From the IMG/VR virus record IMGVR_UViG_3300033508_000321: a stretch of DNA of 64,000 bases. One strand, given 5' to 3'. Each line of letters opens with the position of its first letter. Position 1 is the first letter of the stretch. This stretch comes from a virus. Below the pieces are notes generated by a model. The model saw nothing but the letters and a program-made list of their open reading frames with translations, had not been told where the DNA came from and made no database searches. The position numbers and the translations under genes were made by a program. This document shows, piece after piece, positions 38,625 to 58,985 of the stretch.

Positions 38625-39776
38625 ATGGAAAAACTAGTTTACGTAAAAAAAAGGGAGGGGAACTGGTATGTAGAACCAAATACCCTAATAAGTCAGCCTA
38701 GCGTTAGCAACATAAACCAATGGTATGACTTCGATATTTCAGGAAAGAGAATGATCCTCAGACCGCAGCATCCCGGTTACAATGATGGTGACATAATCGG
38801 CTTTAAATCCGCCGCTTTTTTTCCTGATGATGACTACGTAGGTGCAGGTGCAGAATGGACAGAGGTATGTATTTCCGGTGTATGGAAACACGAACCATAC
38901 TTCGAGAAATATCCATCGGCAAAACCAAAAATTCGTGAGTTGGATATCTTGAAAAAGAACATCGAACCGATGACAATAGAAGCAAGTGGATTTGCTATTG
39001 ATACCGATTTGTGGTACTACCTGCTACTACTGATGAAACAAGGTAAGCAGGTGCTACTAAGCGGTGCGAGCGGTAGCGGAAAAACGGAGCTACCGATGTA
39101 CTTAGTTAAACATTTGAACGGATTGAAAAACGTTAGCGCACGAAAACTTGATATCTTTGATATGGCAGTGAGTAACCCGGAGGCGAATTTCAAAGGTCAG
39201 ATGCATATGGTTAACGGTACAACCGAATTTGTATATAGCAGATTCGCAAAAAGGATTCAAGAACCTCACCAAGTGATAGTACTGGACGAGGTAAACCGTG
39301 GTGACTTGGACGTGCAAAATATGCTGATGCCGTTGTTCGATGGACGTAGAACTCTATTTGTAGAGCGTGGACATACCGAAGAGATAAAAGCACACCCCAC
39401 TACCGTTTTTTGGGCGACTGCCAATGTAGGTAACGAATTTGCGGGTACAAACATGATTGACTTAGCATTCCTGCAACGTTTTCATGTGGTAGAAGTGCCA
39501 TTTCCAAAACCAGAGGACGAAGTAAAAGTACTCGAGATGCGTACTAGGGTTGAACATGATTCGGCTGTAAAACTGGTAAAATTGGCGGGAAAAGTTCGTG
39601 AAAACCCTAGTATAAAACCAATATCCACACGCCAGTTAATTTTTACATCTGAGCTAGTCGTGGCAGGTTATCCAATAGTGAAAGCAATAGAACTTTCAAT
39701 CCTTACTCAGTACCCTACTGATGGGTTTTCAGGCGGTGACCGTGGAATAGTAAAAGCAGAAATTTTGAAGCTATGA
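38625..39776 (+). CDS. AAA+ ATPase (MoxR / CobS / NorQ-like, AAA_5 type)
   Basis: Walker A 'LLSGASGSGKTE'. Walker B 'VIVLDEVNRGDLDVQNMLMPLFDGRR'. Paired by an ATGA overlap with a vWA protein. Confidence 0.8.
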   Translation: MEKLVYVKKREGNWYVEPNTLISQPSVSNINQWYDFDISGKRMILRPQHPGYNDGDIIGFKSAAFFPDDDYVGAGAEWTEVCISGVWKHEPYFEKYPSAKPKIRELDILKKNIEPMTIEASGFAIDTDLWYYLLLLMKQGKQVLLSGASGSGKTELPMYLVKHLNGLKNVSARKLDIFDMAVSNPEANFKGQMHMVNGTTEFVYSRFAKRIQEPHQVIVLDEVNRGDLDVQNMLMPLFDGRRTLFVERGHTEEIKAHPTTVFWATANVGNEFAGTNMIDLAFLQRFHVVEVPFPKPEDEVKVLEMRTRVEHDSAVKLVKLAGKVRENPSIKPISTRQLIFTSELVVAGYPIVKAIELSILTQYPTDGFSGGDRGIVKAEILKL

Positions 39777-41446
39777 GAGTATTCGATGCATTAAAAACTG
39801 ACTGGCTTGGACGTGGTGAAAACTATGTGAAACGTGCAGAATTAACTTTTGATTTGTTAACGCTTGAACCTTATTCTACTTTCATGTACAAAATACCGGC
39901 GGGTGCAGTTAGTTTCGTACAACCGCTCACCACTAAATTTGTCAGCACGATAAAACCGGTGACGATAAAGTATAGCGATAAAGGTAGCAGCACTGATGGT
40001 AAGCAAATTATAATCAGCACCGAGCCAGAGGCTACTTTAGAACCACAGAAAGCGTTGGACGTGATGATCGGTCTGGGATGCCGTGAAGTAGCGCACATCA
40101 TGTATACAACATTTGAGGTGGAGAAAAATGAGGTTTTGCGAGCGATTATAAACATTGTAGAGGATGAACGTATAGAGGATCGAATGGTAACAGATTTGCC
40201 CGGCGTTTTTCCATTCTTACAGCGTGCAAAAGCGTTCTTTTTTGACAGAATACCCGATGCGCCTAAAAACGAATTACAAGAGATATTTTTGGCCTTTTTA
40301 CGCTTAGTACGTTACCCTGCTACACTACCCGAGGAATTAGCTGATAAGTATAATGATGTGCTGGAACAGATACTTGAAATCTTGACACCGTACCCGAGCA
40401 CGTTCGAAGAGGTAAAAATTGCATCGAAAAAAATATACGAACTGTTTCTACAATTCATGGACGAGCAAGAAGAACAGCAACAACGGAATGAGCAAGGCGA
40501 AAGTGAGGATGTGGAAGAGGGCGAAGGGCAAAGCAGTGGTGAGGAATCTACTGAGGAAAAAATGCTACGTATGCTGAAAAGTTTGGCGCAAGCATTAGAA
40601 CCAGAGGTAGAAGGTGAAAAGCCAGAGGATACTCGAATACTACCAACCGAGGGCACGTGTGATGTATTTTCGGTAAGGTGGCAAAAACCCGGCGGAATGA
40701 TAAAAGGTAAACCTGACTTAAGTAGCGTAGCAGCTATCCGCCGTGAATTTCTACCGATTGACTATACCAAGAAACACGTGCTACACAATAAAAATAGCGG
40801 TAGCTTAGATGATACTGAACTGGTACGAGGCTTTGCCGGTAGTAAGAACATCTACGAGGTAACATCATACGGAAAAGCCGATATTTTGAATCTTGTTCTT
40901 TTGGTGGATCAATCTGGTAGCATGGATGGTAGCCGAATAGAAATGGCAAGAAACGTAGCTATAATCGTGAGGGAAGCAACACGTGGATTTTCATTTATTC
41001 GCTTTTTTGCTTATGGTCATTCTACTGAGGATAGTGGTAGACCTACACCTACGGACTTAGATATTTTTTGCGAAAAGGGCGTGGATAAATTGGATTCGAT
41101 ACAAGCGAAAAATGCTTGCAATCGTGATGGTAGCGCAATCATGGAGGTTACTGCTCGAGTACAAGCATTAAGCCCCTACAAAACTGTTATTCTGATGATC
41201 AGCGATGGCCAACCGAATGCCTTAGTACCACACGGGTTTACGGATGAAAGTTTTATACGTCACGCAGTAAAATTTGCGGAAAAACGGAAAACCAAAATAG
41301 CACACATAAGCATGGTAGGTTTATCGTGGAAAAACGTATACGCATACGAGATGGATGCAAGCAGTAATTTTACCATGAAAATGGTACTGATGCTTAGACA
41401 GGTATTGAAAGATAATTTTGCTCAAAATGTGTTAACAAAACTTTAA
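39773..41446 (+). CDS. vWA-domain protein (CobT / NorD-like partner of the AAA+ ATPase)
   Basis: MIDAS 'LVLLVDQSGSMDG', with a later 'MISDGQPN'. An acidic low-complexity stretch 'EEQQQRNEQGESEDVEEGEGQSSGEESTEE' lies mid-protein. Confidence 0.75.
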   Translation: MRVFDALKTDWLGRGENYVKRAELTFDLLTLEPYSTFMYKIPAGAVSFVQPLTTKFVSTIKPVTIKYSDKGSSTDGKQIIISTEPEATLEPQKALDVMIGLGCREVAHIMYTTFEVEKNEVLRAIINIVEDERIEDRMVTDLPGVFPFLQRAKAFFFDRIPDAPKNELQEIFLAFLRLVRYPATLPEELADKYNDVLEQILEILTPYPSTFEEVKIASKKIYELFLQFMDEQEEQQQRNEQGESEDVEEGEGQSSGEESTEEKMLRMLKSLAQALEPEVEGEKPEDTRILPTEGTCDVFSVRWQKPGGMIKGKPDLSSVAAIRREFLPIDYTKKHVLHNKNSGSLDDTELVRGFAGSKNIYEVTSYGKADILNLVLLVDQSGSMDGSRIEMARNVAIIVREATRGFSFIRFFAYGHSTEDSGRPTPTDLDIFCEKGVDKLDSIQAKNACNRDGSAIMEVTARVQALSPYKTVILMISDGQPNALVPHGFTDESFIRHAVKFAEKRKTKIAHISMVGLSWKNVYAYEMDASSNFTMKMVLMLRQVLKDNFAQNVLTKL

Positions 41447-43253: not shown

Positions 43254-43626
43254 CAAAGAGAATTTAGAACCTACCATGCAGGTAGCACACCGACCAAAAA
43301 TAACACCGCTAGAGGTGTTCAGAAAATTGGCGGCAGAGGTAACAGACGATGCACTTATAACGTATTTAGAAGTGCTTAGGAAACGTTTCTACGTAGAAGA
43401 AAGAATACTTGTACACAATGTCGGTTTGCTCACACACATGGAAAAAAACAACGTGCTGAGCGAAGTTGTAAACCGTATTCAGCATCTAGGATTGAAGGGC
43501 GAAATAAAGCGGGAAAATGTGCTGGCGTTTCTTGCTTTGCTCAAATATCACTACTCAATAAACGTAGAAAATTTGGGTGGAAAAGATCGTTTAACAGTGT
43601 TAAATTACTTTTATGAGCGTAGCTAG
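43237..43626 (+). CDS. Hypothetical protein
   Basis: 129 aa. Overlaps both neighbours. Confidence 0.5.
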   Translation: MWYKINKENLEPTMQVAHRPKITPLEVFRKLAAEVTDDALITYLEVLRKRFYVEERILVHNVGLLTHMEKNNVLSEVVNRIQHLGLKGEIKRENVLAFLALLKYHYSINVENLGGKDRLTVLNYFYERS

Positions 43627-43912
43627 GGTAGAAAGCATAAAGCTATCAGAGGTAACACATGAGCGTGATTTCGTACTCAAAACGCTGGGTTTTGCTAATC
43701 GTCAGTGGGAAAGTAGTAGGCTGCAGCTTACTTTTGGCGAGGCACTGGGTGTTTTTCGGGCAGTTACTGAGCTAGGGTCGTTTGTTGGTATGTCAGCGCA
43801 CACGCCTCAGATGTTTATTTTTGTTGACGTGAACATAAAGAGTCACGCAGCAATGGACATGGTAGCCAATTTAGAGTACAGATGTAAAGTAAAAACGGCA
43901 AAAGATTTTTAA
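43613..43912 (+). CDS. Small paralogue family member 1 (C-terminal 'LEYRCKVK' motif)
   Basis: 99 aa. It has the shared C-terminal motif plus a 5-aa tail. Confidence 0.55.
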   Translation: MSVARVESIKLSEVTHERDFVLKTLGFANRQWESSRLQLTFGEALGVFRAVTELGSFVGMSAHTPQMFIFVDVNIKSHAAMDMVANLEYRCKVKTAKDF

Positions 43913-43916
43913 TGTT

Positions 43917-44213
43917 ATGAGTTTCCAAACCTACGCAGGTAAACAAGCAATGAAAGACATAGTTTTTTCTTTCGAGGACTTAGCTCGGAAGGTTACATGG
44001 GTAAAAGGGCAAGCACCAACAAATGCAGAATACGAAAAACGGGCGAAAATAAACGGGAAACTGACCATGTATAGAGATTGGGTAAAAGCACCTACAACAA
44101 TAGGTACGGTAGACTATATAAGTGATACCGGATGGCATTTCACAAACTCAGGTTTGGACGTAATTAGTTGGGATAAACTTGTAAACCTTGAGTACCTATG
44201 TCGAGTGAAGTAG
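43917..44213 (+). CDS. Small paralogue family member 2 ('LEYLCRVK*')
   Basis: 98 aa. It shares 'VFSFEDLARKVTW' with member 3. Confidence 0.55.
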   Translation: MSFQTYAGKQAMKDIVFSFEDLARKVTWVKGQAPTNAEYEKRAKINGKLTMYRDWVKAPTTIGTVDYISDTGWHFTNSGLDVISWDKLVNLEYLCRVK

Positions 44214-44470
44214 ATTGGATGTTAACATCAGCTAAAATGGTTTTTTCGGTGGATGATCTATACAAGAAAGTAAGCTATGCTGTAATGGTGAAAGGTACAG
44301 ATTTTAGAGAGATAATGAAAGAGGGTATAGCTGATAATTTCTGGCTGCTCAGAGGCGTTTTAAGCTGTGGTGTAGTTACGAAATTTAAAGTCGGTGAAAT
44401 ACATTACCCAAATACAGTTGTGAAGTTTGCCCAACTTAAATACATAGAATACCAATGCGAGATAAAATAA
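44198..44470 (+). CDS. Small paralogue family member 3 ('IEYQCEIK*')
   Basis: 90 aa. Its ATG is nested in the C-terminal motif codons of member 2. Confidence 0.55.
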   Translation: MSSEVDWMLTSAKMVFSVDDLYKKVSYAVMVKGTDFREIMKEGIADNFWLLRGVLSCGVVTKFKVGEIHYPNTVVKFAQLKYIEYQCEIK

Positions 44471-44688
44471 TATACGATGCCGATTCAGTTTACAGAATTT
44501 CCGGGAAAACGGTTCTTGACTTAGAAGATGGAAAAAGTAAACGGCGGGTGGGAAAACCTTATTTCTTGCAAGATTTAAGAATGTTCAAAACCATAAACAA
44601 AGAGATAAACATAAAAATGCCGGGAAGCGAGTATTTCGTGAAAAGAAAAGCGGCGGAAATAATGGAATTTATATGCGAAGTGAAATAA
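44455..44688 (+). CDS. Small paralogue family member 4 ('MEFICEVK*')
   Basis: 77 aa. Its ATG is nested in the C-terminal motif codons of member 3. Confidence 0.55.
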   Translation: MRDKIIYDADSVYRISGKTVLDLEDGKSKRRVGKPYFLQDLRMFKTINKEINIKMPGSEYFVKRKAAEIMEFICEVK

Positions 44689-45041
44689 CACTTGACCCAA
44701 ATAGTACTCTCAGCGATTACTATTCAATGTTTTGTGCTGACGCACAAATTACAAATAAGAAAAACACCATGAAAACAATGACTCGGACAGAAAAAAGAAA
44801 TACTTTATTACTTGCTAAAGTAACAGTAAGCCCACTAACGGTGGAATCAGAGAAAGCCTTTTTTAAAAGCCGGGTTAAAGAGCAGCATTTAGCTCTTATT
44901 GTGACTGATGATAACCTTTGGAAAGGATACCAGAGTTACAACGCTCTGATGAAAGAATCGGGTGATACCGATTACAAACACCTAACTTCTAAAGAAGTAT
45001 TAGTACTGAGGGAGGAAATAAAAAAGGAATTTAACTTATGA
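44673..45041 (+). CDS. Hypothetical protein
   Basis: 122 aa. Its ATG is nested in the C-terminal motif of member 4. Confidence 0.5.
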   Translation: MRSEITLDPNSTLSDYYSMFCADAQITNKKNTMKTMTRTEKRNTLLLAKVTVSPLTVESEKAFFKSRVKEQHLALIVTDDNLWKGYQSYNALMKESGDTDYKHLTSKEVLVLREEIKKEFNL

Positions 45042-45421
45042 TTGTTACCCTATTCCATGATTACGAAGTAGTAAAAAAGCTACGTACCTCAACACTTGTG
45101 CGCATCTTTTTTGACCGCAAAGGTAAGAATACTGATGTATTTTACCTATCCGCTAAACAACTGGATAAGCTGCATGCATCATACAGCAAAGTACAAAATT
45201 CAAGGGTAAAAGATACCCACGGGTTGGTTGTTATTGATGATGATAGATTTGTATGGTCTGGTGTTGAATTTCCTGATTATTCAGACCGTGAAAACCTTTG
45301 TAAGCATTTTTCTGGCGGTTTTTCATCTATTTACGAGAAAGTAGAAGTTACAAAGGAAACGCACACCCCCGAAGAAGTAAAACCCGTAGAAACAAAACCG
45401 AATGATGATCTTGTTAGATGA
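45038..45421 (+). CDS. Hypothetical protein
   Basis: 127 aa. ATGA overlap. Confidence 0.5.
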   Translation: MIVTLFHDYEVVKKLRTSTLVRIFFDRKGKNTDVFYLSAKQLDKLHASYSKVQNSRVKDTHGLVVIDDDRFVWSGVEFPDYSDRENLCKHFSGGFSSIYEKVEVTKETHTPEEVKPVETKPNDDLVR

Positions 45422-46598
45422 CCAGGCAAAAGCATTTGAAAAGCTAAAAACCCTTAAAGTAGGTGCACTTTTCATGTCACCGGGTGCGGGTAAAACCCTA
45501 ACAGCCTTTGAGCTTATTCATAGTGTAGAAGGTATTAACTACGTGTTATGGTTAACACCCTTTCAGACGAAAGAAAATTTGCGCAAAGAATTAACAGAGT
45601 ATGGTGGTTTTGACTTTGCCCATGATGTAGTGGGTATAGAAACACTTTCATCATCTGATGCTGTTTATCTGAAATTAAGTAAGAAGATACAAGAGCATAA
45701 CACATTTATAGTGTGTGATGAAAGCCTGAAAATAAAAAATTTGGCGGCAAAGCGTACCCAAAGAATCCTAGAACTGAGCAAATTTTGTGAGTACAAACTC
45801 ATATTGAATGGTACACCGCTAAGCAAGAATGTAATGGATTTATGGGCACAGTTACAATTCCTTAGCCCTAAAATACTAAATATGCCTTTGGCTCAGTACA
45901 AGAGTGTATTCGTGAAATACACCACCATCACGAAGAAAATAAACGGCTATAAAGTAACAAGGGAGTTTATCGATGGCTACGCCAATATTGATTACCTGTA
46001 CTCACTTATTAAACCCTACGTGTACGAGTGTGACCTTACAGTAAATGTAGAAAAACATTATGTAGAGTACATTTATGAGGTAGGTGAAGAAGCAAAAGAA
46101 GAGTATAACAGGTTAAAAAAGTTCATGTCTGAGCATGAATATTTGCTTTTCAGGAATAACAACGTATTCTTGGAACTGATACAAAACTTACAAATGGCTT
46201 ACTGTACAGTACCTGAAAAATTCGAACTCCTGGGGTGGGTGCTTACTCAGGTAGAACCAAAGAAAACCATTGTTTTTTGTAAATTTATACGTAGTGTTGA
46301 ATCCATTAGTAAGAAATTTCCATACCTTAAAGTACTGACCTACGGTAAACACGCATACGGGTTAAATTTGCAGGAATATAATACGGTTGTATTTTGGGAT
46401 AAAACCTTTGATTATGCGTTACGATTACAAGCCGAAAGGCGTATCTTTAGAACCGGGCAAACTGATATTTGTACGTATTATGACCTAACAGCTAGTACGG
46501 GTTTGGATAACATGATAAACGGAAATATAGAGCGGAAAGAATCCATGCTCAGTTACTTTAAGAAAATAGCATTTAAAACTTTTATTGAAAACTTATGA
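45402..46598 (+). CDS. SNF2-family helicase / ATPase
   Basis: Walker A 'SPGAGKTLTAFE'. 'VCDESLKIKN'. 'LNGTPLSKNVMDLWAQLQFLSP' (SNF2_N). Motif VI 'LQAERRIFRTGQT'. Confidence 0.8.
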   Translation: MMILLDDQAKAFEKLKTLKVGALFMSPGAGKTLTAFELIHSVEGINYVLWLTPFQTKENLRKELTEYGGFDFAHDVVGIETLSSSDAVYLKLSKKIQEHNTFIVCDESLKIKNLAAKRTQRILELSKFCEYKLILNGTPLSKNVMDLWAQLQFLSPKILNMPLAQYKSVFVKYTTITKKINGYKVTREFIDGYANIDYLYSLIKPYVYECDLTVNVEKHYVEYIYEVGEEAKEEYNRLKKFMSEHEYLLFRNNNVFLELIQNLQMAYCTVPEKFELLGWVLTQVEPKKTIVFCKFIRSVESISKKFPYLKVLTYGKHAYGLNLQEYNTVVFWDKTFDYALRLQAERRIFRTGQTDICTYYDLTASTGLDNMINGNIERKESMLSYFKKIAFKTFIENL

Positions 46599-47143
46599 AA
46601 AAAGCAGCGTTTAAAAGCCCTGTGTACAGTGTTGTAGCTGTACCGATTTATAAAATTGAGGCAAATAACTACAATCCAAACCACGTTGCAAAGCGTGAAA
46701 TGGACTTACTCTACCAAAGCATAAAATGTGATGGGTACACTATGCCTATTGTATGTTTCTATGATGATGAAAGGGATAAATACATTATCGTGGATGGTTT
46801 TCACCGTTATACGATTATGCTCAAATACAAAGATATTTTTGAGCGAGAAAATGGTATGTTACCGGTATCAGTTATTCACAAAGATCTAAGTGACCGAATG
46901 GCTTCAACAATTCGTCATAACAGGGCACGAGGTAAACATGAAGTGGAACTGCAAGCATCTTTAGTCGGGATGTTAAAATCTGGGTGGGATGAGCTAAAAA
47001 TAATGAAAGAGCTGGGCATGACCTTAGAAGAAGTACAACGTTTGATAGGTTTACGTGGTATAGCAAGTGAGATAAAAGGTGTACCTTATTCAATCGAACG
47101 CCAAATAATAGAAGCAGGGGAGGACGTTACTGATGAAGATTAA
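46595..47143 (+). CDS. ParB-like nuclease-domain protein (IbrB-like)
   Basis: 'NNYNPNHV', 'IIVDGFHRYTIM' and 'TIRHNRARGKH' fit the ParB/Srx-fold IbrB-type pattern as I recall it. Confidence 0.7.
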   Translation: MKKAAFKSPVYSVVAVPIYKIEANNYNPNHVAKREMDLLYQSIKCDGYTMPIVCFYDDERDKYIIVDGFHRYTIMLKYKDIFERENGMLPVSVIHKDLSDRMASTIRHNRARGKHEVELQASLVGMLKSGWDELKIMKELGMTLEEVQRLIGLRGIASEIKGVPYSIERQIIEAGEDVTDED

Positions 47144-47714
47144 ATTTATAGTAATGACCAGCGAGGATCCTAAAAGGATTGAAAATGTACAAAAAATGGA
47201 AATTCCGGACTTAGTAATTTACAGGGGTGATAACGATGACGTATTTCAAAAGTATCTTAATTGTTTTATCCTAGAATCTGAGTATGATGGCGTGCTAGTA
47301 CTTGAGGATGATGTACAACTTTGCTGGGATTTTTATACTAAAGTGTTAGGTATAATTCAAAAATATGCCAGTGATGTGATTAGCTTTTTTGAAAAGCCTA
47401 ATTCTAGACAGGTACTTGAAAAAGGTTTTAGGCCGGGGCGTGACTTTATGTTCAACCAGTGTAATTATTACCCTAAAGCTACATGTGAGTTATTTTTAGG
47501 TTCGGAAAACGTAGCTGAGTTTAAAAACTCATATTTCACTAAATACAAAGTTTGGGTAGCCCCGATCGATATTTACATAGCACACGTGCTAAGTAAATAC
47601 AAGTTAGAGTACCTTATGTACTTACCTTTTTTGGTGCAGCATTTACCCTTTAAATCTATTTTGGGTAACAGGTCTACCAAACGTCAAACCAAATTTTTTA
47701 TAGATGACCTATGA
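47133..47714 (+). CDS. Glycosyltransferase-like protein (GT25-like, tentative)
   Basis: 193 aa. 'IKFIVMTSEDPKRIENVQKM' and 'VLVLEDDVQLCWDF' resemble the GT25 N-terminus and EDD motif. Confidence 0.4.
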   Translation: MKIKFIVMTSEDPKRIENVQKMEIPDLVIYRGDNDDVFQKYLNCFILESEYDGVLVLEDDVQLCWDFYTKVLGIIQKYASDVISFFEKPNSRQVLEKGFRPGRDFMFNQCNYYPKATCELFLGSENVAEFKNSYFTKYKVWVAPIDIYIAHVLSKYKLEYLMYLPFLVQHLPFKSILGNRSTKRQTKFFIDDL

Positions 47715-48868
47715 AAAGAACTACAACGCTGGGCACGGAAAACGTGTTGGAATCTACACTAAAACGTATTGCTTACCTGTTTGATCACTATGATAATATT
47801 TCCTTATCATTCTCTGGTGGTAAAGATAGCACTGCTTTGTTTCATTTGGTGAATAACGAGGCTGTGAAACGTGATAGGAAATTTATTCTATACTTTCAAG
47901 ATCAGGAAGCAGAGTATCAGGGTACTATTGACCTAATGGAATGGGCTATGACTAGGCCAAACGTAATACCACTTTGGTATCAAGTACCGATTTTTATGAC
48001 CAATGCAGCTAGTCACCAACAACTATTTTTGTGGGCGTGGGGTGAGGGTGAAAAATGGGTGCGAGAAAAGCATCCGATGGCCATACAATCTATTGATGGA
48101 AAATATCCTAAGCGGTTTTATAAGTTTAACTTGTGGGTAGGTCAGCAACTAAGAAAATTGCCCGGAAATCATGTATCAATAATCGGATTAAGAGCCGAAG
48201 AAAGCCCTGATAGACGTTTTGTGATGTTTGGCGAAGACAGTGATTTGTTTTGGTTACGTAGAAAAACAGAGCCACATAAAGCATATCCTATTATTGATTG
48301 GGCATATACCGATGTGTGGAAGTACCTTATTGAAGGTAGTTACAGGTACAATAACGTGTATGATAAGATGTATATGCTAGGTGGTAATTTACGCCAATTC
48401 AGGGTTTCAAATTTGGTGCATGAAAAGGCATTCCGGTGTTTAACTGATTTGCAGGAATTAGAACCTGAAACGTATGATAAGTTAGAAGAACGTTTGCAGG
48501 GTGTACATACGGCAGCTATCTATGGCAAAGAAGCCTTGATTTATTCGATAAAAACCTTACCGGAAAGTTTTAAAACATGGAAAGAGTACAAGGATTTTCT
48601 ACTAAGTAGTATACACCCAGACCTGAGCAAATTGTTTCGTTATCAATGGTCACGTTTTGGTGATACGGACGATGTACGAGCTTGTAAATACATGGTAAAA
48701 CGTATTCTATTATGCGACTGGGAGGGTAACATCAAAGAACAGGATTGGATGAAATACTACCCTGAGTGGACTGTTAATAAATTCAACTACACCAAGGAAC
48801 AGATACTAGAAAAAAATAGGCAGAAACGTGAAGATCCAGTAATAAATAAATGGATGGCCAAGCTGTGA
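47711..48868 (+). CDS. PAPS reductase-family PP-loop protein (IbrA / DndC-like)
   Basis: PP-loop 'LSFSGGKDSTALFHL'. 'IIGLRAEESPDRR'. A long C-terminal extension follows. Confidence 0.75.
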   Translation: MKRTTTLGTENVLESTLKRIAYLFDHYDNISLSFSGGKDSTALFHLVNNEAVKRDRKFILYFQDQEAEYQGTIDLMEWAMTRPNVIPLWYQVPIFMTNAASHQQLFLWAWGEGEKWVREKHPMAIQSIDGKYPKRFYKFNLWVGQQLRKLPGNHVSIIGLRAEESPDRRFVMFGEDSDLFWLRRKTEPHKAYPIIDWAYTDVWKYLIEGSYRYNNVYDKMYMLGGNLRQFRVSNLVHEKAFRCLTDLQELEPETYDKLEERLQGVHTAAIYGKEALIYSIKTLPESFKTWKEYKDFLLSSIHPDLSKLFRYQWSRFGDTDDVRACKYMVKRILLCDWEGNIKEQDWMKYYPEWTVNKFNYTKEQILEKNRQKREDPVINKWMAKL

Positions 48869-48874
48869 AATGTT

Positions 48875-48906
48875 AAAACGCTGCTTAATTGCAGCGTTTT
48901 TTATTA
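48875..48906 (+). terminator. Rho-independent terminator
   Basis: AAAACGCTGC-ttaatt-GCAGCGTTTT followed by a T-rich run. Confidence 0.7.
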
Positions 48907-48926
48907 TTTTTGTTAAAATAAATGCA

Positions 48927-48934
48927 TAGATTTG
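48927..48934 (+). promoter_or_regulatory. TAnnTTTG box
   Basis: TAGATTTG, 17 nt upstream of ATG 48952. It lies inside the longer track ORF that starts at 48922. Confidence 0.45.
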
Positions 48935-48951
48935 TAAAAATTTTACATTTT

Positions 48952-49827
48952 ATGGACATAAACGAATTAAAAGAACTCATAAAACCCGCTTTTGCAAGCG
49001 TCGGTAAACTACCAAAAGAAGAGGCGAAGAACTACGGTAATTACAAATTGATGCCGGTAGAGATATTGGTGAAAGCGGGTTGGAATTACAAGCAAGAAAA
49101 CCCGTATACGAGTGATAAACTAAACGCTAATTTAAAGCGTAACGGGCAGGTAGAAAATATACAAGTACGATTACTTGATACAGGTTACTACGAGGTAGTA
49201 AATGGTAACCACCGCTTAGATGAAATCATAAAACTTGGGCGCAAAATGGTGGTGGTTTATGACCATGGAAAAGTAAGTTTAGCCGAGGCGAAGCGTATTG
49301 CCATTGAAACAAACGAAACGAAATTTAAAGCGGAAGAAACGCTTTTGGCGGAAGCAATCCGAGAACTCGAAGCAGAATTTGGCTTAGAAGACCTAGAGCA
49401 AACATTACCATTCTCGGATGAAGAAATGGAAAAAATGATGTCGGAAATGGATTCTGAGTTTGAGGAACCAACACAGGGTAATTATACACGCAAGATTGAA
49501 TCGCCTACCTATGAGCCAAAGAATGAAAAACCGCACACCATAGACTTGTACGACAAAAGCAAGTATGAGCAACTTTTAGAGGGTATAGAGGGTAGCTCAG
49601 CAGATCCAGAGGTTAAGATGTTTCTAAAAATTGCGGCGGCAAGGCACATAGTTTTTGACTATTCTAAGATAGCCGATTTTTATGCGCACAGCGATGCACA
49701 GGTACAACGTTTGATGGAGGATTCAGCACTCGTAATTATAGACTTTAATAGAGCTATTGAGCTAGGTTTTGTGCAGTTATCGGAGAATATAGCAAAACAA
49801 TACACAGAGGATTATGGAAAAGCCTAA
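48952..49827 (+). CDS. ParB-like nuclease-domain protein (second copy) with acidic linker and C-terminal domain
   Basis: 'YYEVVNGNHRLDEI' (DGxHR-type motif). I prefer ATG 48952 because the box at 48927 sits inside the alternative start at 48922. Confidence 0.65.
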   Translation: MDINELKELIKPAFASVGKLPKEEAKNYGNYKLMPVEILVKAGWNYKQENPYTSDKLNANLKRNGQVENIQVRLLDTGYYEVVNGNHRLDEIIKLGRKMVVVYDHGKVSLAEAKRIAIETNETKFKAEETLLAEAIRELEAEFGLEDLEQTLPFSDEEMEKMMSEMDSEFEEPTQGNYTRKIESPTYEPKNEKPHTIDLYDKSKYEQLLEGIEGSSADPEVKMFLKIAAARHIVFDYSKIADFYAHSDAQVQRLMEDSALVIIDFNRAIELGFVQLSENIAKQYTEDYGKA

Positions 49828-50677
49828 AGATTTTTGCATTTTTATTATCTCACATGGTAGGCCTGATAAGGTAATGACGTGGAATACTTTGAAAAAAGTT
49901 GGTAATACATCACCAGTTTACATTGTTATAGATGATACGGATAAAACATCGGAAAAATACTACACTAATTTCGGTAAAGAAACAGTAGTGATGTTCGATA
50001 AAGAAGCGATAGCCAAAACTACGGATCATGGAGATAATTTTTGGAACCTACGCACAACTACTCACGCACGAAATGCTTGCTTCGACATAGCTAAAAAATT
50101 AGGGTACACGTACTTTTTAGTGCTAGACGATGATTATACCTACTTTGCGTACACGGCAGACGATGCCTTTAACTACAATAGTAAGGGCACACCAGTAAAA
50201 GATATAAATAAAACTTTTTGTTTGTTTATCGATTTTTACAAGAGTATTCCAGCACTTAGTGTATGTTTTGCTCAAGGGGGCGACTTTGTGGGCGGCGAAA
50301 ATTCTGCTGTATTTAAAAAAGAACTATCAAGAAAGGCTATGAACTCGTGGTTTTGTTCTGTAGATCGCCCCTTTAAATTCATAAGTAGGTTGAATGAGGA
50401 TGTTAACACTTACTTGTGTCTGGGTGCCACAGGCGGTTTATTCTTTACAGTTACGTGGATAAGACTTGAGCAGATACAAACGCAGCTAAATTCAGGTGGA
50501 ATGACGGAGGCATACCTAGAAGGTGGTACATACGTAAAATCATTCTACACAGTGATGTACTGTCCATCTTTTGCTAAGGTAGGATTAATGGGTAACACCA
50601 ATAAAAGGTTGCACCATAGAATATCATGGAATAATGCAGTACCTAAGATTGTAAATGAAAATATTAGAAAAATATGA
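49814..50677 (+). CDS. GT-A-like glycosyltransferase candidate (DxD motif)
   Basis: 287 aa. 'FIISHGRPDKVMTWNTLKK', 'YIVIDDTD' and 'FLVLDDDYTYF'. The assignment is tentative. Confidence 0.4.
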   Translation: MEKPKDFCIFIISHGRPDKVMTWNTLKKVGNTSPVYIVIDDTDKTSEKYYTNFGKETVVMFDKEAIAKTTDHGDNFWNLRTTTHARNACFDIAKKLGYTYFLVLDDDYTYFAYTADDAFNYNSKGTPVKDINKTFCLFIDFYKSIPALSVCFAQGGDFVGGENSAVFKKELSRKAMNSWFCSVDRPFKFISRLNEDVNTYLCLGATGGLFFTVTWIRLEQIQTQLNSGGMTEAYLEGGTYVKSFYTVMYCPSFAKVGLMGNTNKRLHHRISWNNAVPKIVNENIRKI

Positions 50678-51168
50678 AAAAGAAAGAAAAAATTTGGGCG
50701 GAGGTTCAACCAAAAATATACGATGAAAAATACCACGATATAAAGATGGAAGAATTGGTGATGGAAGGGTTAACGTTGCAAGAAATTGCAGAAAAATTGG
50801 CGGTAGAATATCGAACATTAACAAAATGGTTAGTACGTTACCCATCACTGGCAGAAGCATTCAATCGTGGACGTATACCGAGAGATTTGGCGGTGGAAAA
50901 TGCCCTTTACAAGAGAGCTATTGGATATACGTATGAAGAAAAAATAGCTGAGTCAACTGGTACGATGGAGGAGGCGGAGGGGAAAAAAAGGGCGGGAAAA
51001 TTCCGAAGAGTAACAAAACATATGCCACCAGATGTAGAAGCAATAAAGATGTGGTTAAGTAATAAAAAACCACACCTGTGGTCAAACACTCAAAAGATAG
51101 ATGTAACATCGAAAGGACAACAAATGCCGATTGTAATGATAGGTGCACCACCGGAAGAGGAAAAATAG
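50674..51168 (+). CDS. Terminase small subunit-like HTH protein (gp3-type), or a regulator
   Basis: HTH 'LTLQEIAEKLAVEYRTLTKWL'. 'ALYKRAIGYTYEE' and 'PPDVEAIKMWLSNKKPHLW' fit small-terminase patterns. It lies 12.4 kb upstream of the terL start in this window. Confidence 0.45.
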   Translation: MKKKEKIWAEVQPKIYDEKYHDIKMEELVMEGLTLQEIAEKLAVEYRTLTKWLVRYPSLAEAFNRGRIPRDLAVENALYKRAIGYTYEEKIAESTGTMEEAEGKKRAGKFRRVTKHMPPDVEAIKMWLSNKKPHLWSNTQKIDVTSKGQQMPIVMIGAPPEEEK

Positions 51169-51301
51169 GCGTATATACTCGCCGACCAATTTCGGAACTC
51201 ATTCTTATAACTGATTGAAAATGTTATCGTGTAAGTGTTATTTCAGATATTTATTAACAAAGTGCGTACCCCGTTAACAATAGTTTTTGTATACTTGTCA
51301 G

Positions 51302-51336
51302 CCTGTTAGAGTGTTACAAACTTTAACAGGTTTTTT
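51302..51336 (+). terminator. Hairpin plus T-run in the 260-bp non-coding gap
   Basis: CCTGTTA-(15 nt)-TAACAGG followed by TTTTTTAATTTT. Confidence 0.4.
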
Positions 51337-54433: not shown

Positions 54434-55939
54434 ATGTGGAATCAAGATTTTTTCCCCACGCCGGCAGAGGTAGTATCACAGATGCTACTCGGTGAGGATT
54501 TAATCGGCAAAATAATTTTAGAGCCTTCAGCAGGTAAAGGTAACATAGTGGACATATTGGTAGAACGTGGTGCAAAAGAAGTGTTAGCGTGTGAGCAAGA
54601 ACCACAACTACGTAGAATACTCAAAGGCTGCAAAATCTTAGCCGCTGATTTTCTCACTCTTACCAGTGAGGCTGTTAGCCACATTGACTACATCATAGCA
54701 AACCCACCGTTTTCAGAGCAAGAAAAGCACATACAGCACATGATCGATATAGCACCCGATGGTTGCATCATTGTAACGTTGTGCAACTCGAATTTAACAA
54801 ACGCAAATACTACCTCACGCCATAGAATAATGAGCTACGCAAGTCAGTATGGCTATTCGCAGGATTTGGGTAGCGTTTTTAGTGATGCTGAGCGCACAAC
54901 GGATGTAAGCGTTTCAATGCTCAAAATTTTTAAACCGAAAACGGCGGAAAATGAGTTTGATGGGTATTTCGAATTAGACGATACACCAGAGGAGGATGGC
55001 GAAGGCATTATGAGCTATTCAATCATTCGGGAGTTCGTTAACCGATACGTAGGTGCGATAAAAGATTTTGACTCAGTATACGAAGCCCAAAAGCGGATGA
55101 ATAACCTAATACAGCCATTCAATAGCAGTATCGTTTTTTCCGCTCACGATGACAAAACACCACTAACACGTGAAGCATTCAAAAAGCAATTACAAAAAGC
55201 GGCGTGGAAAATGATTTTTTCGAAAATGGATATGCATAAGTACACTACCGAAAAGCTAATGACGCAGTTAAATAAATTCGTAGAACGTCAGCAACACGTG
55301 CCCTTTACCGTTAAAAATGTGTGGAAAATGATCGACATGATTGTCGGTACACATGATTCCCGGATGCAGTCTTTAATCGTAGAAATCTTTGATAAAATCA
55401 CAGCACACACACCCGATAATAAACTGGTGCAAGAAGGGTGGAAAACCAACAGCGAGTATATTGTTAACAAGCGATTTATTCTACCTTCGCACGATGTTCG
55501 AATGGGTTACAACGGTAAACCGGATTGGAACTGGAACCGAAATAATTATTTCTTAGATGACCTCACAAAAGCACTTAGGCTTGTAATGGGCAACGAGTTG
55601 GGAAAAGCAGCGAGAGCGGAATTTATTAAGTTAGAAGGTATACGTCCGGTGCAATGGTATGCCGTTGGTAGCTGCAAATGTATGCTTGAAAATGATGGTA
55701 CAATTCGTGAAGAACCCTTGGGATTCTCAGAGGTAATAAAATCGGCGGAATGGGGTGAGTGGTGTAGTTTCGGATACATAAAATTCAGATGCTACAAGAA
55801 GGGTACAGTACACGTGGAATTTCAAACAGAAGAAGTTTGGGCAAAATTTAACAACGTAGCAGCAAAAGCAAAAGGATTTCAGTTAGCAAGCAATTTCAAA
55901 CCAAATACTAAAAAGAATGGAAATAAGTTTAATTCCTAA
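54434..55939 (+). CDS. N6-adenine DNA methyltransferase with a roughly 300-aa C-terminal extension
   Basis: Motif I 'ILEPSAGKGN'. Motif IV 'IIANPPFSEQ'. Confidence 0.75.
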   Translation: MWNQDFFPTPAEVVSQMLLGEDLIGKIILEPSAGKGNIVDILVERGAKEVLACEQEPQLRRILKGCKILAADFLTLTSEAVSHIDYIIANPPFSEQEKHIQHMIDIAPDGCIIVTLCNSNLTNANTTSRHRIMSYASQYGYSQDLGSVFSDAERTTDVSVSMLKIFKPKTAENEFDGYFELDDTPEEDGEGIMSYSIIREFVNRYVGAIKDFDSVYEAQKRMNNLIQPFNSSIVFSAHDDKTPLTREAFKKQLQKAAWKMIFSKMDMHKYTTEKLMTQLNKFVERQQHVPFTVKNVWKMIDMIVGTHDSRMQSLIVEIFDKITAHTPDNKLVQEGWKTNSEYIVNKRFILPSHDVRMGYNGKPDWNWNRNNYFLDDLTKALRLVMGNELGKAARAEFIKLEGIRPVQWYAVGSCKCMLENDGTIREEPLGFSEVIKSAEWGEWCSFGYIKFRCYKKGTVHVEFQTEEVWAKFNNVAAKAKGFQLASNFKPNTKKNGNKFNS

Positions 55940-56132
55940 AAGTGGGTACGAGCACATGATAAAATTTGCGGTGCAACGTGGTGAGGTAGAAAATACAATC
56001 TACTATACCGATGGCACAATAGGCATAGAGGTAGAACCTGACGAGGCGGATGCTCAGGTAGCGTACATAAAAACGGTGCTGCTTAAGTACGATGTTTCGG
56101 AAAACGATTACACTTTGAGATATGAGCCTTAG
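55917..56132 (+). CDS. Hypothetical protein
   Basis: 71 aa. Overlaps the upstream gene by 23 nt. Confidence 0.4.
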   Translation: MEISLIPKSGYEHMIKFAVQRGEVENTIYYTDGTIGIEVEPDEADAQVAYIKTVLLKYDVSENDYTLRYEP

Positions 56133-56697
56133 TAAGAAAATCATAAAAGAATACGGCATTGACGTGAATAGCGGGGAAACTGTAGAGGTTTTCCCCCCCA
56201 CGATTGACGATATACTTATTGAGTATGCCATACGTTTACGCCGCCGTGAGCGTTTTTTCTTTCACCGGACGTATAAACGTAATCTTTCGATGCGTGGAAT
56301 GTACTTAGCGCAGATAAAACGCCTTAAAGCGGAAAATGTGAAGTTAAAGTATGATATGTTCGCATTGCAAGTTGAAACCGATAAAAAGATAGTGCAAACG
56401 TTGAAGCACCCGATACCCAAACCACCGGTAAAACGGGCGGTAAAAAATTCTGGTGAAATACCGAAAACCGTTAAAAGCATATTGACTGGCTATACAATGG
56501 TAGAGGGTGACGTGATAACTACCTTCATAAAACGCTGGGATGCATACTCGCATGAAATAAAAATGGTAAAAGTAAAGGGTGCTTACTTGTTTAACTTTTG
56601 TTTGTACGAAGGTGAAAAAATAAAAACCCGCAGCAAACTAACTACCGCTTCAACCGCAGTTATTACTAACGAATTAAAGCAAAGAATGTACGTATGA
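56122..56697 (+). CDS. Hypothetical protein
   Basis: 191 aa with an ATG start. Confidence 0.55.
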   Translation: MSLSKKIIKEYGIDVNSGETVEVFPPTIDDILIEYAIRLRRRERFFFHRTYKRNLSMRGMYLAQIKRLKAENVKLKYDMFALQVETDKKIVQTLKHPIPKPPVKRAVKNSGEIPKTVKSILTGYTMVEGDVITTFIKRWDAYSHEIKMVKVKGAYLFNFCLYEGEKIKTRSKLTTASTAVITNELKQRMYV

Positions 56698-56969
56698 TAA
56701 ACCAGAAAATTAAAGATGCTATTGAGAATGGCTATTTAGATGATAGCGTATGCGTTAACCCCGATGGTTATTTTGTAACCGTAGAAGTTAAGTTACGCAT
56801 ACCGAAGAGTTTTATGCACCAAGTTCATACAAGGCAGATAGAGAAAGGATTGAAGAAGTACGGTAAAACCATTGACGATTGCGAACCGGATGAGCATCCG
56901 TGGGAACTGATGGCGATTGAAGAAATGATCGATTTATTGGCATATTACTTTAAAAACAAGCAACAATGA
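56694..56969 (+). CDS. Hypothetical protein
   Basis: 91 aa. ATGA overlaps on both sides. Confidence 0.5.
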   Translation: MINQKIKDAIENGYLDDSVCVNPDGYFVTVEVKLRIPKSFMHQVHTRQIEKGLKKYGKTIDDCEPDEHPWELMAIEEMIDLLAYYFKNKQQ

Positions 56970-57625
56970 AAGTAGAAAGATCATTGCGTGTACTAATAAC
57001 GCATGAAGAAAGTCAAACAGTAATGGAGGCGTTTTTGAATGCCGGACATGATGCGTATAGCTGCGACTTATTGCCAGCAAGTGGTAAATACCCTGAAAGG
57101 CACTTGCAGATGGATTGCTTTGAGGCCATAAAATTTATTAAACCGGATTTTTTAGGGATGCACCCGGAGTGTACTCGATTAACAGTTGCGGCAAATAAAT
57201 ATTACAAGCCCGAATATGCTGAAAGGTTTCCAGATATACACACGCAGCGAGCCGAGGCGGTTGACCATTTTTTGAAATGCGCCGAAGCACTAGAGCACGT
57301 TGGTACGGGTTACATTGAAAACCCAATAGGCATAATGAGCAGGTTGCATAAAAAGCCAACTCAAATAGTACAACCTTATCAATTCGGACATTCTGAACGT
57401 AAAAGCACTTGTTTATGGCTTGCCGGATTGCCTACGTTGTACGCCACTAAAGTAGTTGAGCCTGATATAATCGTGCATAAAAGTGGTAGAACTGACAGCC
57501 GCTTGCACTACGAAACTCTTAAACTGCCAAGAGAGGAAAGAAGAAAAGCACGGTCAAAAACATTTCCGGGTATCGCTCAGGCAATGGCCGAACAATGGAC
57601 TAATTATTTACTTAATAAATTATAA
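56966..57625 (+). CDS. C5-cytosine-methyltransferase-like protein with a non-canonical motif I
   Basis: 'GMHPECTRL' (PC-like), 'YIENPIG' (ENV-like), 'FGHSERKSTCLW', 'RSKTFPGIAQAMAEQW'. The N-terminus is 'VLITHEESQTV' instead of a Gly-rich SAM loop. Confidence 0.5.
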   Translation: MKVERSLRVLITHEESQTVMEAFLNAGHDAYSCDLLPASGKYPERHLQMDCFEAIKFIKPDFLGMHPECTRLTVAANKYYKPEYAERFPDIHTQRAEAVDHFLKCAEALEHVGTGYIENPIGIMSRLHKKPTQIVQPYQFGHSERKSTCLWLAGLPTLYATKVVEPDIIVHKSGRTDSRLHYETLKLPREERRKARSKTFPGIAQAMAEQWTNYLLNKL

Positions 57626-57627
57626 CA

Positions 57628-58446
57628 ATGAAAGTAGAAATTTTAGCAGATTCACTGCACCGAGGCCACCGCCTCACCACTTTCCGACTCACGTTTCCTC
57701 AAATCATAGTAAAGGAAATGCTTCGGCATAGAATGTTTTCTTTCGCAAGTCTGAGTATGCGGGCTATTGGCTTAGATAGAAACATAGAAAAAATAAAGGC
57801 GGATATGTGGCGACCTTTGAGCTGGTTACCTGAGCACAAAGGTATGTGTACTGATGAGGTAATTGAAAACCGGGAAGAACTGGACGAGCTACATAATGAG
57901 CTATTCCAAATCACTATGCGATACGTAAGACAGTTGCAGCAAAGAAACGTATCCCACCAAATCGTTAACCGGTACATAGAACATTTCGGGCAAGTGCAGA
58001 TGATTGTATCAGCAACCGAATGGGAAAACTTCTACAAGTTACGCAGGGGTAAACGTGCTGAGCAGCACATAAAACTTTTGGCGGAAACGATGTACGATGC
58101 TCAAAATACGAGTACACCATACACGTCCGATGACCGCTTCTGGCATATGCCATTCGTTGGTGGTATAGAAGAAAACGTGGCGAAAGTAGCACGTGTTTCG
58201 TTTAGTCAAGATAAGGTATTCACACCAGAGGAAAATAAAAACTTGTACAAGAAACTTTTAGCAAGCGGTGAAATGTCACCATTTGAACACGTGGCCGTGG
58301 CAATGGGTAGCCGTTACTATGATTATTCACGAACCGTTACCGGTGGTTTAGAGCATGGATGGGATAAAAATTTCCGTGGTTTTATTTCTCTTCGCACGCT
58401 GGTGGAAAACCCTTTGAACGTAGACTACGTGGAAATGGCAGTGTAG
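57628..58446 (+). CDS. thyX: Flavin-dependent thymidylate synthase
   Basis: Exact ThyX signature RHRxxSxxxxSxR in 'LRHRMFSFASLSMRA'. 272 aa. Confidence 0.85.
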   Translation: MKVEILADSLHRGHRLTTFRLTFPQIIVKEMLRHRMFSFASLSMRAIGLDRNIEKIKADMWRPLSWLPEHKGMCTDEVIENREELDELHNELFQITMRYVRQLQQRNVSHQIVNRYIEHFGQVQMIVSATEWENFYKLRRGKRAEQHIKLLAETMYDAQNTSTPYTSDDRFWHMPFVGGIEENVAKVARVSFSQDKVFTPEENKNLYKKLLASGEMSPFEHVAVAMGSRYYDYSRTVTGGLEHGWDKNFRGFISLRTLVENPLNVDYVEMAV

Positions 58447-58448
58447 TT

Positions 58449-58597
58449 TTAACAACTTATTTACAATTAAAGGAAACTTTGTTAAAAACTTGTTAATTTC
58501 TAATAGATTTTAACAAATCATTAACAAAGTTTCCTTTTATAATTTATTGGTGTTTAACAACTTATTAACAAATGATGCTTTATCTTTGTTGTATAAA
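58449..58597 (+). repeat. 149-bp intergenic cassette, copy C
   Basis: Same offsets as the other copies: arms at 58471-58485 and 58521-58535, TATCTTTG at 58581-58588. Confidence 0.9.
58581..58588 (+). promoter_or_regulatory. TAnnTTTG box of cassette C
   Basis: TATCTTTG, 26 nt before ATG 58615. Confidence 0.5.
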
Positions 58598-58614
58598 CAA
58601 ATAAGAAAAACACC

Positions 58615-58941
58615 ATGAGAACTTTAACAAGCAGTTTCACAAGATTAGAGGAAAACACACTTTTTTCCGCTGAATTTCAACAAGCATTAACAGAAGTGCA
58701 AAATATGGTACTGGGATTAAGCCCAATGAAAGCCGAACAGGGAAAGTTATACGCAGCGGAAGCAGCCGGGGAACTTTCCGAGTACGAGGTTGACAAGCTG
58801 GTAGAAACTACCATAGTTGAGCACAAGAAATTCACGGCAAAGTTCTACAAATTGGAACTTAACGATGATGACCAAGGGCAGTATTCAGCTACCGAGGGTG
58901 CGTTTTTTGCCTCCGGTGTAGCCACACTAACAATATACTAG
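58615..58941 (+). CDS. Hypothetical protein (cargo of cassette C)
   Basis: 108 aa. Bracketed by cassette C and the GGGGCGAAAGCCCC hairpin. Confidence 0.65.
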   Translation: MRTLTSSFTRLEENTLFSAEFQQALTEVQNMVLGLSPMKAEQGKLYAAEAAGELSEYEVDKLVETTIVEHKKFTAKFYKLELNDDDQGQYSATEGAFFASGVATLTIY

Positions 58942-58955
58942 TAGTCACAAACAAC

Positions 58956-58972: not shown

Positions 58973-58985
58973 AAAAAACTAAAAA

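Follow-up and report, generated by a model that had tools for sequence, protein, structure and literature searches.

What an IbrA/IbrB-type gene pair does for the phages that carry it is the question raised by a block of four overlapping genes at positions 45402 to 48868 of IMG/VR virus record IMGVR_UViG_3300033508_000321, of which a stretch of 64,000 nucleotides (referred to below as the window) was analyzed. Such pairs are among the commonest phage and prophage genes without an assigned function, and viromics usually labels them as "cysH/PAPS reductase" sulfur genes (PAPS, phosphoadenosine phosphosulfate). In the window, the gene for a small glycosyltransferase (GT)-like protein lies between the ibrB-type and ibrA-type genes, and the gene for a SNF2-family ATPase stands ahead of all three. 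We tentatively favor the reading, to which we give a little less than an even chance, that the block is part of a phage locus for DNA-directed modification, with a conserved two-enzyme core, IbrA/IbrB, to which tailoring enzymes are optionally added.

The window comes from a phage genome, has a G+C content of about 39%, and carries every gene on the plus strand. Successive genes of the block overlap by 4, 11, and 4 nucleotides, and the block is closed by a hairpin resembling an intrinsic terminator (aa, amino acids):

45402-46598, plus strand: SNF2-family ATPase, 398 aa (PF00176, phrog_62)
46595-47143, plus strand: IbrB-type ParB/Srx-fold protein, 182 aa (phrog_2159, homology to annotated IbrB)
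47133-47714, plus strand: small GT-A-fold glycosyltransferase-like protein, 193 aa (family alignment, structure model)
47711-48868, plus strand: IbrA-type PP-loop protein, 385 aa (PF01507 and PF11922, phrog_2302)
48875-48900, plus strand: intrinsic-terminator-like hairpin closing the block (10-bp stem with 5 G-C pairs, then TTATTATTTT, a T-rich tail)

The original prediction, made from the sequence of the window alone, had described four overlapping genes ending at a terminator, and the list of open reading frames (ORFs) and the hairpin agree with it, as do the motifs that it quoted (NNYNPN, DGFHRY, HNRARGKH, EDD, and SGGKDS), all of which are present. Its end point for the operon stands and its start at 45402 does not: ORF 45038-45421 shares 20 nucleotides with the start of the SNF2 gene, and further ORFs, each overlapping or abutting the next, extend back as far as about 42320, so that the four-gene block is not a self-contained operon and its transcription unit does not begin at 45402. 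The locus as first described was also incomplete, as it left out the genes for a second ParB-like protein (ParB2) and for a glycosyltransferase of the TET-associated kind (TAGT) at 48922-50677, directly past the terminator.

The four proteins of the block

The IbrA-type protein matched PF01507 PAPS_reduct (6.4e-15; 56 bits against a cut-off of 22.5), PF11922 DUF3440 (1.2e-10; 41.9 bits against 25), and phrog_2302 (2e-117), and it is 31% identical over 318 aa (E 3e-40) to the annotated IbrA of Escherichia phage PhiR5_2. Its architecture is that of IbrA, with an N-terminal PAPS-reductase-like PP-loop domain containing SGGKDS followed by DUF3440; the IbrA-type identity first proposed from the SGGKDS motif is thus supported by both profile search and homology. 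The family is large (2,722 clusters at E<=1e-5), and a look-up of the exact protein sequence returned one contig of 1.4 kb only. Among 64 diverse homologs (29 to 82% identity), about 40 positions are invariant, SGGKDS among them; no cysteine is invariant or nearly so in these homologs, and none is conserved in 19 locus-derived copies. Scores against the CysH, CysD, and DndC NCBIfam models all fell far under the cut-offs (28.7 bits against 165 for TIGR00434, CysH; 19.8 bits against 290 for TIGR03183, DndC). The protein has neither a conserved cysteine of the C-terminal ECGLH type nor the score of a CysH PAPS/APS reductase; it likewise lacks the conserved cysteine dyad and the score of DndC, and no dndA/D/E partner genes were detected.

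An AlphaFold2 (AF2) model of IbrA reached a predicted local distance difference test (pLDDT) value of 84.5. Its top structural neighbors in Foldseek were the PAPS domain of human FAD synthase, CysH, yeast FMN adenylyltransferase, and CysD, with TtuA, NcsA, and TilS ranking next; DndC was not among the top 50 matches. The DUF3440 region, which makes up the C-terminal ~150 residues, is all-helical in the model and matches nothing. PP-loop enzymes hydrolyze ATP to AMP and pyrophosphate (PPi). Because no cysteine is conserved and FMN adenylyltransferase and CysD are among the nearest structures, we favor adenylyl transfer over sulfur chemistry: IbrA is probably neither a reductase nor a sulfurtransferase, and, from what is established for the PP-loop superfamily, ATP-dependent adenylyl transfer or activation would fit this sequence and model better than thiolation.

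The IbrB-type protein scored 20 bits against ParB_N, for which the Pfam cut-off of 26.3 was not reached, and matched phrog_2159 at 3e-82. Its identity to the annotated IbrB of phage PhiR5_2 (40% over 164 aa, 2e-35) supports its original assignment to the IbrB type. Homologs in two other loci (L001 and L108) carry PF02195, and the NPN, DGxHR, and NxARGxH motifs are invariant across diverse copies. There was also a weak match to the ParB-fold serine kinase SerK. The protein is 51% identical to gp1 of Microbacterium phage Hendrix (L190 1-795), a comparison between a Bacteroidota-type phage and an actinobacteriophage, and the best 120 IbrA matches in a collection of 5.8 billion proteins were all at least 76% identical. 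Together, the identity across phyla and the uniformity of the IbrA matches point to strong purifying selection on the pair.

The SNF2 protein matched PF00176 SNF2-rel_dom (3.1e-12; 46.6 bits against a cut-off of 24.9) and phrog_62 (1e-63), with Helicase_C at 21.5 bits, slightly under its cut-off of 23.5. It has both the N-lobe and the helicase C-lobe of the SNF2 family and retains motifs I, II, III, and VI in intact form (GAGKT28, DESL106, NGTP136, and QAERRIFRTGQ343-353). Its best match among PDB sequences was 1z63, the Sulfolobus SNF2 core (1.3e-12). The compact SNF2 ATPase of the original prediction therefore does appear to be an intact motor, and we regard it as a predicted translocase of double-stranded DNA and an optional accessory of the IbrA/IbrB core.

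The identity of the 193-aa protein is less direct. It had no direct Pfam or PHROG match, Glyco_transf_25 (PF01755) being absent even at E<=1, and neither a tblastn search against GenBank phages nor a comparison of the family profile with PDB sequences gave a match above noise. An alignment was made of its 34-member family, all of whose members are metagenomic; R15, E58-D59-D60, D146, PFLVQH, and RQxxxFIDD are invariant in it, and 22 of these 34 relatives matched PF01755 at sub-threshold to weak levels (best, 2.4e-6). The AF2 model (pLDDT 91) retrieved 37 PDB matches at E<=1e-3 in Foldseek, essentially all of them GT-A enzymes, including the GT25 enzyme COLGALT1, POMGNT1, and mimivirus R655. 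The model belongs to the GT-A fold, being Rossmann-like and having a beta-strand followed by an acidic motif of the DXD type. We conclude from the model that the protein is GT-A-fold glycosyltransferase-like and that the link to GT25 holds at the superfamily level only; of the "GT25-like protein with an EDD motif" first proposed, the fold and the invariant E-D-D stand, and membership in the GT25 profile does not.

A relative in phage Hendrix surfaced by structure and profile comparison only; the model and this glycosyltransferase align with a TM-score of 0.80, and hhalign returned 98.8% for the same family. An exhaustive profile search raised the family to 772 representatives (50% clustering), most of which stand alone and are about 190 aa long. 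Fusions to a second GT or to a UDP-glucose dehydrogenase occur in a few members and indirectly support sugar transfer from a nucleotide-sugar donor as the predicted activity. A scan of one genome per species found the family on one contig only, which is phage-like and binned with a Lentimicrobiaceae metagenome-assembled genome (MAG); the hint at a host stops at Bacteroidota.

Linkage of the genes across phages

A diverse set of 78 viral loci was gathered around IbrA homologs of 29 to 44% identity, and neighbors were counted within four genes. An adjacent IbrB was found in 71 of these loci (91%). Class-I S-adenosylmethionine (SAM) methyltransferases and second ParB_N proteins were each found in 28, a DPPW-motif protein in 17, SNF2 in 15, the 193-aa GT family in 14, an uncharacterized family of 240 to 340 aa in 10, and a GNAT acetyltransferase in 6; searches of PDB sequences with two of the recurrent neighbor families gave nothing. 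Terminase genes usually lie downstream. IbrA precedes IbrB in most of these loci, and the order in the window is reversed, with IbrB first. The variable methyl-, acetyl-, and glycosyltransferases near IbrA resemble the tailoring enzymes that a modification pathway would use.

The original prediction regarded the coupling to SNF2 as unusual. It proved instead to be standard in the group of Flavobacterium phage FCL-2 and among close relatives, as FCL-2 and 32 of the 36 close, phylogenetically related loci in IMG/VR have SNF2, IbrB, and IbrA contiguous in the same order as the window, without the GT. Three gene orders involving SNF2 were seen (SNF2-IbrB-IbrA, SNF2-IbrA-IbrB, and SNF2-unknown-IbrA-IbrB). 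In 10 diverse loci (L110-L117 and L120 included), the unannotated family of about 240 to 340 aa, with no Pfam match and no PDB sequence match, stands between SNF2 and IbrA and may be a further accessory.

Nor is the insertion of the GT a one-off, as had also been supposed, since the family recurs beside IbrA/IbrB in many unrelated phages. The exact order IbrB-GT-IbrA was repeated in one other phage type only (L011/L031 and the Lentimicrobiaceae-MAG-binned contig L068). IbrA and IbrB were found within a few kilobases in 16 of the 26 IMG/VR loci bearing a relative of the 193-aa protein and likewise in all nine loci with an identity of 39% or more and with flanking sequence, where the order is usually IbrA-IbrB-GT; two further assemblies also show the GT with IbrA/IbrB. 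As IbrA occurs in merely 220 of 50,697 GenBank phage records (0.43%), this linkage is far above chance. The GT is thus rare among close relatives of the window locus, yet it tracks IbrA/IbrB across distant phages. The locus of the window, with its inserted GT, linked SNF2, and flanking TAGT, is neither unique nor ordinary, and the literature searched held no description of these gene arrangements, in keeping with the original prediction.

Known IbrA/IbrB pairs include that of the Escherichia coli ECOR-9 island, YbdN/YbdM of E. coli K-12, and the phage pairs named "PAPS reductase" and "ParB-like nuclease domain." The window proteins share with the pair of phage PhiR5_2 its motifs, the PAPS_reduct plus DUF3440 architecture, and a ParB-like partner in the same operon; the window differs in the GT-A gene between them and the SNF2 gene ahead, all in one overlapping operon. 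The closest cultured relatives are the FCL-2 group (Ficleduovirus): an IbrA 77.5% identical to that of the window is found in FCL-2 and about 90 related GenBank phages. FCL-2 has no GT between IbrB and IbrA, no ParB-TAGT homologs were detected in the 13-kb stretch examined, and the rest of its genome is not similar to the window at the DNA level; a megablast search of positions 45000-51200 against GenBank phages gave no match.

A more elaborate version is carried by Microbacterium phage Hendrix (MH183162.1), which shares with the window a GT of the 193-aa family, an IbrA-like protein (34% identity), and the IbrB-type ParB (51% identity). The Hendrix genes run in the order GT-GT-methyltransferase-acetyltransferase-IbrA-IbrB-type ParB-two ParB-like proteins-helix-turn-helix protein-terminase (gp154-158 and gp1-5; L188 4014-8137 and L190 1-4307), spanning the record ends of a circularly permuted genome directly upstream of the terminase. 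Hendrix differs from the window in its second GT, methyltransferase, acetyltransferase, and two further ParB-like genes, in its actinobacterial host, and in that the flanks viewed carry no SNF2 annotation. The SEA-PHAGES label of its IbrA homolog is "adenylyltransferase," and the paper describing the phage does not discuss the GT-IbrA-ParB cluster (PMC7302621).

The adjoining ParB2-TAGT cassette and comparable systems

Past the terminator of the four-gene block lie a second ParB-like gene and a gene for another glycosyltransferase, followed by the start of the packaging genes:

48922-49827, plus strand: second ParB-like protein (ParB2), 301 aa (phrog_620, 1.6e-19; phrog_723, 1e-16)
49814-50677, plus strand: TAGT-family glycosyltransferase, 287 aa (PF20691, 7.2e-32; phrog_842, 1e-69)
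50674-51168, plus strand: terminase small subunit (phrog_309, 1.3e-33); packaging genes begin here

The TAGT gene, about 950 bp downstream of IbrA, belongs to PF20691 (111.4 bits against a cut-off of 27.5), and phrog_842 is named "beta-glucosyl-HMC-alpha-glucosyltransferase." The TAGT family includes the T-even enzyme that glucosylates glucosyl-hydroxymethylcytosine (glucosyl-hmC) in DNA, a second glucose being added in T6-like phages (PMC13390438). ParB2 has no significant sequence similarity to the IbrB-type ParB. We considered that the 193-aa GT and TAGT might be paralogs and abandoned the idea, as the DXD strand was all that hhalign found them to have in common.

Related loci with upstream sequence number 35, mostly from one phage group and amounting to roughly five independent lineages; in every one of them ParB2 stands directly before TAGT, and the pair is usually followed by terminase genes (TerS-TerL); IbrA/IbrB was found in none of them. 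The ParB2-TAGT pair is a separate, independently conserved unit beside the IbrA/IbrB block, and the two kinds of cassette occupy the same place upstream of the terminase in other phages.

By analogy, ParB2-TAGT belongs with the 5mYOX (TET/JBP)-ParB-GT clusters of phages, which likewise have a ParB-like partner, GT-A DNA glycosyltransferases (TAGT/JGT-like), and proximity to the terminase (PMC13229309; bioRxiv 10.1101/2023.12.21.572611). In those clusters, phage ParB-like proteins activate their cognate thymine dioxygenases on double-stranded DNA, and the neighbors seen most often are GTs, ParBs, and terminases (PMC13229309); phage GT-A and GT-B enzymes glycosylate 5-hydroxymethylcytosine (5hmC) in DNA (bioRxiv 10.1101/2023.12.21.572611). 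They differ from the window in that an IbrA PP-loop enzyme is not a described part of them and in that scans of the window detected neither a TET/JBP dioxygenase nor a hydroxymethylase of the ThyA type. A comparable logic is found in the Dpd 7-deazaguanine system, in which the ParB-like ATPase DpdB is required by the base-modifying enzyme and the SNF2-type proteins DpdE and DpdJ are present (PMC12839542). The window has no TGT/DpdA or preQ0 synthesis genes, Dpd is a host defense system and not a phage operon, and the partial match of the window SNF2 protein to DpdE models (3e-12) covers only the generic motif II-III segment. DndB/DndC and BrxP of BREX type 4 are likewise combinations of a ParB-superfamily protein with a PP-loop enzyme of the PAPS-reductase superfamily that acts on DNA; IbrA has neither their cysteine dyad nor Fe-S features and scores far under the cut-offs of these families.

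The wider window places the block downstream of a replication/recombination module, whose recognizable genes start as follows:

29797, plus strand: DnaB-type helicase
31260, plus strand: primase
33277, plus strand: family A DNA polymerase
35501, plus strand: RecA-like protein
41505, plus strand: Cas4-like exonuclease

Within this module, 38625-41446 holds a MoxR-VWA pair: a 383-aa ATPase of the MoxR type (AAA_5/CbbQ_C) and, after it, a protein of 557 aa that has an acidic linker of low complexity and, at its C-terminus, a weak VWA domain. Just upstream of the SNF2 operon, at 43613-44688, are four tandem small ORFs (99, 98, 90, and 77 aa) that overlap one another, look like paralogs, and share the C-terminal motif (L/I/M)E(Y/F)xCx(V/I)K. 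After the terminase small subunit gene come a strong hairpin terminator at 51300-51332 and then small ORFs, with no recognizable large terminase there. Further DNA-modification genes are dense at 54434-60848, including those for a DUF4942 protein of 501 aa whose N-terminal region is methyltransferase-like, a DNA methyltransferase of phrog_757 (56966-57625), a ThyX-like protein (57628-58446; Thy1, 1e-15), and a Dam-family methyltransferase (60420-60848). The window holds three predicted DNA methyltransferases, and a cytosine-C5 methyltransferase was not detected in it. ORF 701-2116 (471 aa) had no PDB sequence match. The Bacteroidota-type promoter pattern TTTG...TAnnTTTG was not enriched in the window (4 observed against 3.6 expected).

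Weighing the readings

The ParB-type partners, the adjacent TAGT, and the position before the packaging genes fit a modification directed at DNA. Under this reading, the genes would come last in the expression of the replication-gene operon, shortly before packaging. The IbrB-type ParB/Srx protein would bind DNA and nucleotide and recruit or activate IbrA on double-stranded DNA, where the cysteine-less PP-loop enzyme might use ATP to adenylylate, and so activate, a group on the DNA. The SNF2 motor could shift the complex along the duplex or open it, and the GT-A enzyme might then glycosylate the position made or exposed by the core, using a host nucleotide-sugar. ParB2-TAGT would act as an independent second DNA-glycosylation module, and the outcome may be phage DNA that is poorly recognized by host nucleases. 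The folds, intact motifs, families, and linkage on which this scheme is built are observed; we infer the role of DNA as substrate, adenylyl transfer as the chemistry, and DNA as the final site of the sugar. The DNA modification suggested in the original prediction is thereby upheld in general terms, its DndC/thiolation component is not, and the "sequence-tracking" that it attached to the translocase stays speculation.

Several observations weigh against this reading. IbrAB is said to activate prophage gene expression, in work reportedly by Sandt and colleagues from 2002, and such activation, recorded in an annotation note and in the discussion of the FCL-2 paper, is the only experimental phenotype on record for the pair. 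Most IbrA/IbrB loci have no GT, which would put the sugar step outside the core function, and the fusions of the GT family to sugar-metabolism enzymes fit any glycan pathway and not DNA specifically. Methyltransferase and ParB genes are concentrated in general in the region upstream of the terminase, so some of the adjacency may be positional, and the 36 close loci that share the SNF2 order are not independent observations. Among the window ORFs scanned at E<=1, there was no TET/JBP dioxygenase or ThyA-type hydroxymethylase and only the ThyX-like gene at 57628-58446, although very divergent dioxygenases could escape such a scan (PMC13229309); the window thus offers the TAGT no detectable TET/JBP or other source of 5-hydroxymethyl-pyrimidine, and a Pfam scan of ParB-TAGT neighbors in two other phages found no dioxygenase either. 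The literature searched reports no modified base for IbrA/IbrB phages. It also contains no biochemical study of IbrA/IbrB, DUF3440, or YbdN/YbdM, offering annotation-level remarks only (PMC4541368, PMC9068703).

The recorded phenotype leads to a different account, in which IbrA/IbrB together with an RNA-polymerase- or DNA-remodeling-like SNF2 protein form a switch that activates late transcription of packaging and structural genes, the GT and TAGT being unrelated neighbors. IbrA and IbrB are indeed annotated as "co-activator of prophage gene expression" in phage PhiR5_2, the discussion of the FCL-2 paper ties the expression of eib/immunoglobulin-binding proteins to them (PMC4541368), ybdNM of E. 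coli is a tightly repressed operon with YbdM a predicted transcription factor (PMC9068703), and in the window, as in most other loci, the module lies directly upstream of the terminase genes. We consider such a switch unlikely as the whole explanation, as a pure regulator needs neither an invariant PP-loop nor some 40 invariant IbrA residues, the repeated recruitment of methyl-, acetyl-, and glycosyltransferases would be unexplained, and the linkage to the GT is hardly coincidence. It need not exclude DNA-directed modification, since a covalent mark on DNA could be the means of activation. Somewhat less likely, in our judgment, is that the locus encodes a glycan pathway in which IbrA, as a nucleotidylyltransferase, makes an ADP-linked sugar or similar donor and the GT-A enzyme, methyltransferases, and acetyltransferases build a glycan on virion proteins or the host envelope. 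The structures closest to IbrA (FMNAT/FAD synthase, CysD) are adenylyltransferases that have the PAPS-reductase fold, the Hendrix "adenylyltransferase" lies beside genes for two GTs, a methyltransferase, and an acetyltransferase, the GT family includes fusions to UDP-glucose dehydrogenase or a second GT, and COLGALT1, POMGNT1, and TarS, the top structural neighbors of the GT, act on proteins or glycans. A small-molecule pathway would have no need of the ParB-type partner found in 91% of the diverse loci or of the frequent DNA translocase, most IbrA/IbrB loci are without any GT, and in the window a member of a DNA-glycosyltransferase family, TAGT, adjoins with its own ParB.

Two further accounts fare worse. 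Counterdefense without a covalent DNA mark, with a ParB/Srx NTPase and a PP-loop enzyme that consume or convert a nucleotide or immune signal or sequester DNA ends, would draw on the NTPase, kinase, and nuclease activities seen among ParB/Srx enzymes (PMC12839542, PMC10853773), on the weak SerK match of the IbrB-type ParB, and on the hydrolysis of ATP to AMP and PPi by PP-loop enzymes. It seems improbable to us: it leaves the SNF2 motor and the recurrent glycosyl-, methyl-, and acetyltransferases unaccounted for, and no similarity to known anti-defense proteins was found, the PADLOC matches covering only SNF2 and PP-loop segments of a generic kind. Phosphorothioation of DNA or thiolation of bases in the manner of DndC, the analogy offered in the original prediction, is largely refuted and has in our view a very slight chance of being correct. 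IbrA and DndC belong to the same PP-loop superfamily, and there were weak partial matches to DndC and BrxP models (5.7e-08 and 1.2e-07). DndC, however, relies on a cysteine dyad (PMC10853773, PMC12839542), and no such dyad is conserved in IbrA; the TIGR03183 score and the structural comparison also speak against the analogy, and no DndA, DndD, DndE, or cysteine desulfurase genes were detected in the window.

Returning to DNA-directed modification, we also put forward a bolder version, which we hold to be possible but doubtful: IbrA/IbrB would be the core of an undescribed and widespread class of post-replicative DNA hypermodification, in which a ParB/Srx protein loads a cysteine-less PP-loop enzyme (aided by SNF2 in some lineages), a base or the backbone is adenylylated, and lineage-specific GT-A, methyltransferase, or GNAT enzymes decorate the site. 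The window would then hold a glycosylating variant stacked with a ParB-TAGT cassette.

The lack of a catalytic cysteine and the almost constant ParB-type partner argue against the "cysH/PAPS reductase" label under which these pairs usually appear. A changing set of glycosyl-, methyl-, and acetyltransferases together with a DNA motor before the packaging genes is a pattern typical of DNA-hypermodification clusters. If the reading is true, adenylylation by a PP-loop enzyme would add a new activation chemistry to the routes by which phages modify their DNA, and there would be consequences for restriction evasion, for host range in phage therapy, and for DNA-modifying enzymes as tools. As cultured phages carry both a minimal (FCL-2) and an elaborated (Hendrix) version of the module, the function of IbrA/IbrB is directly testable, and the locus in the window helps to convert a long-standing question about this pair into a concrete hypothesis.

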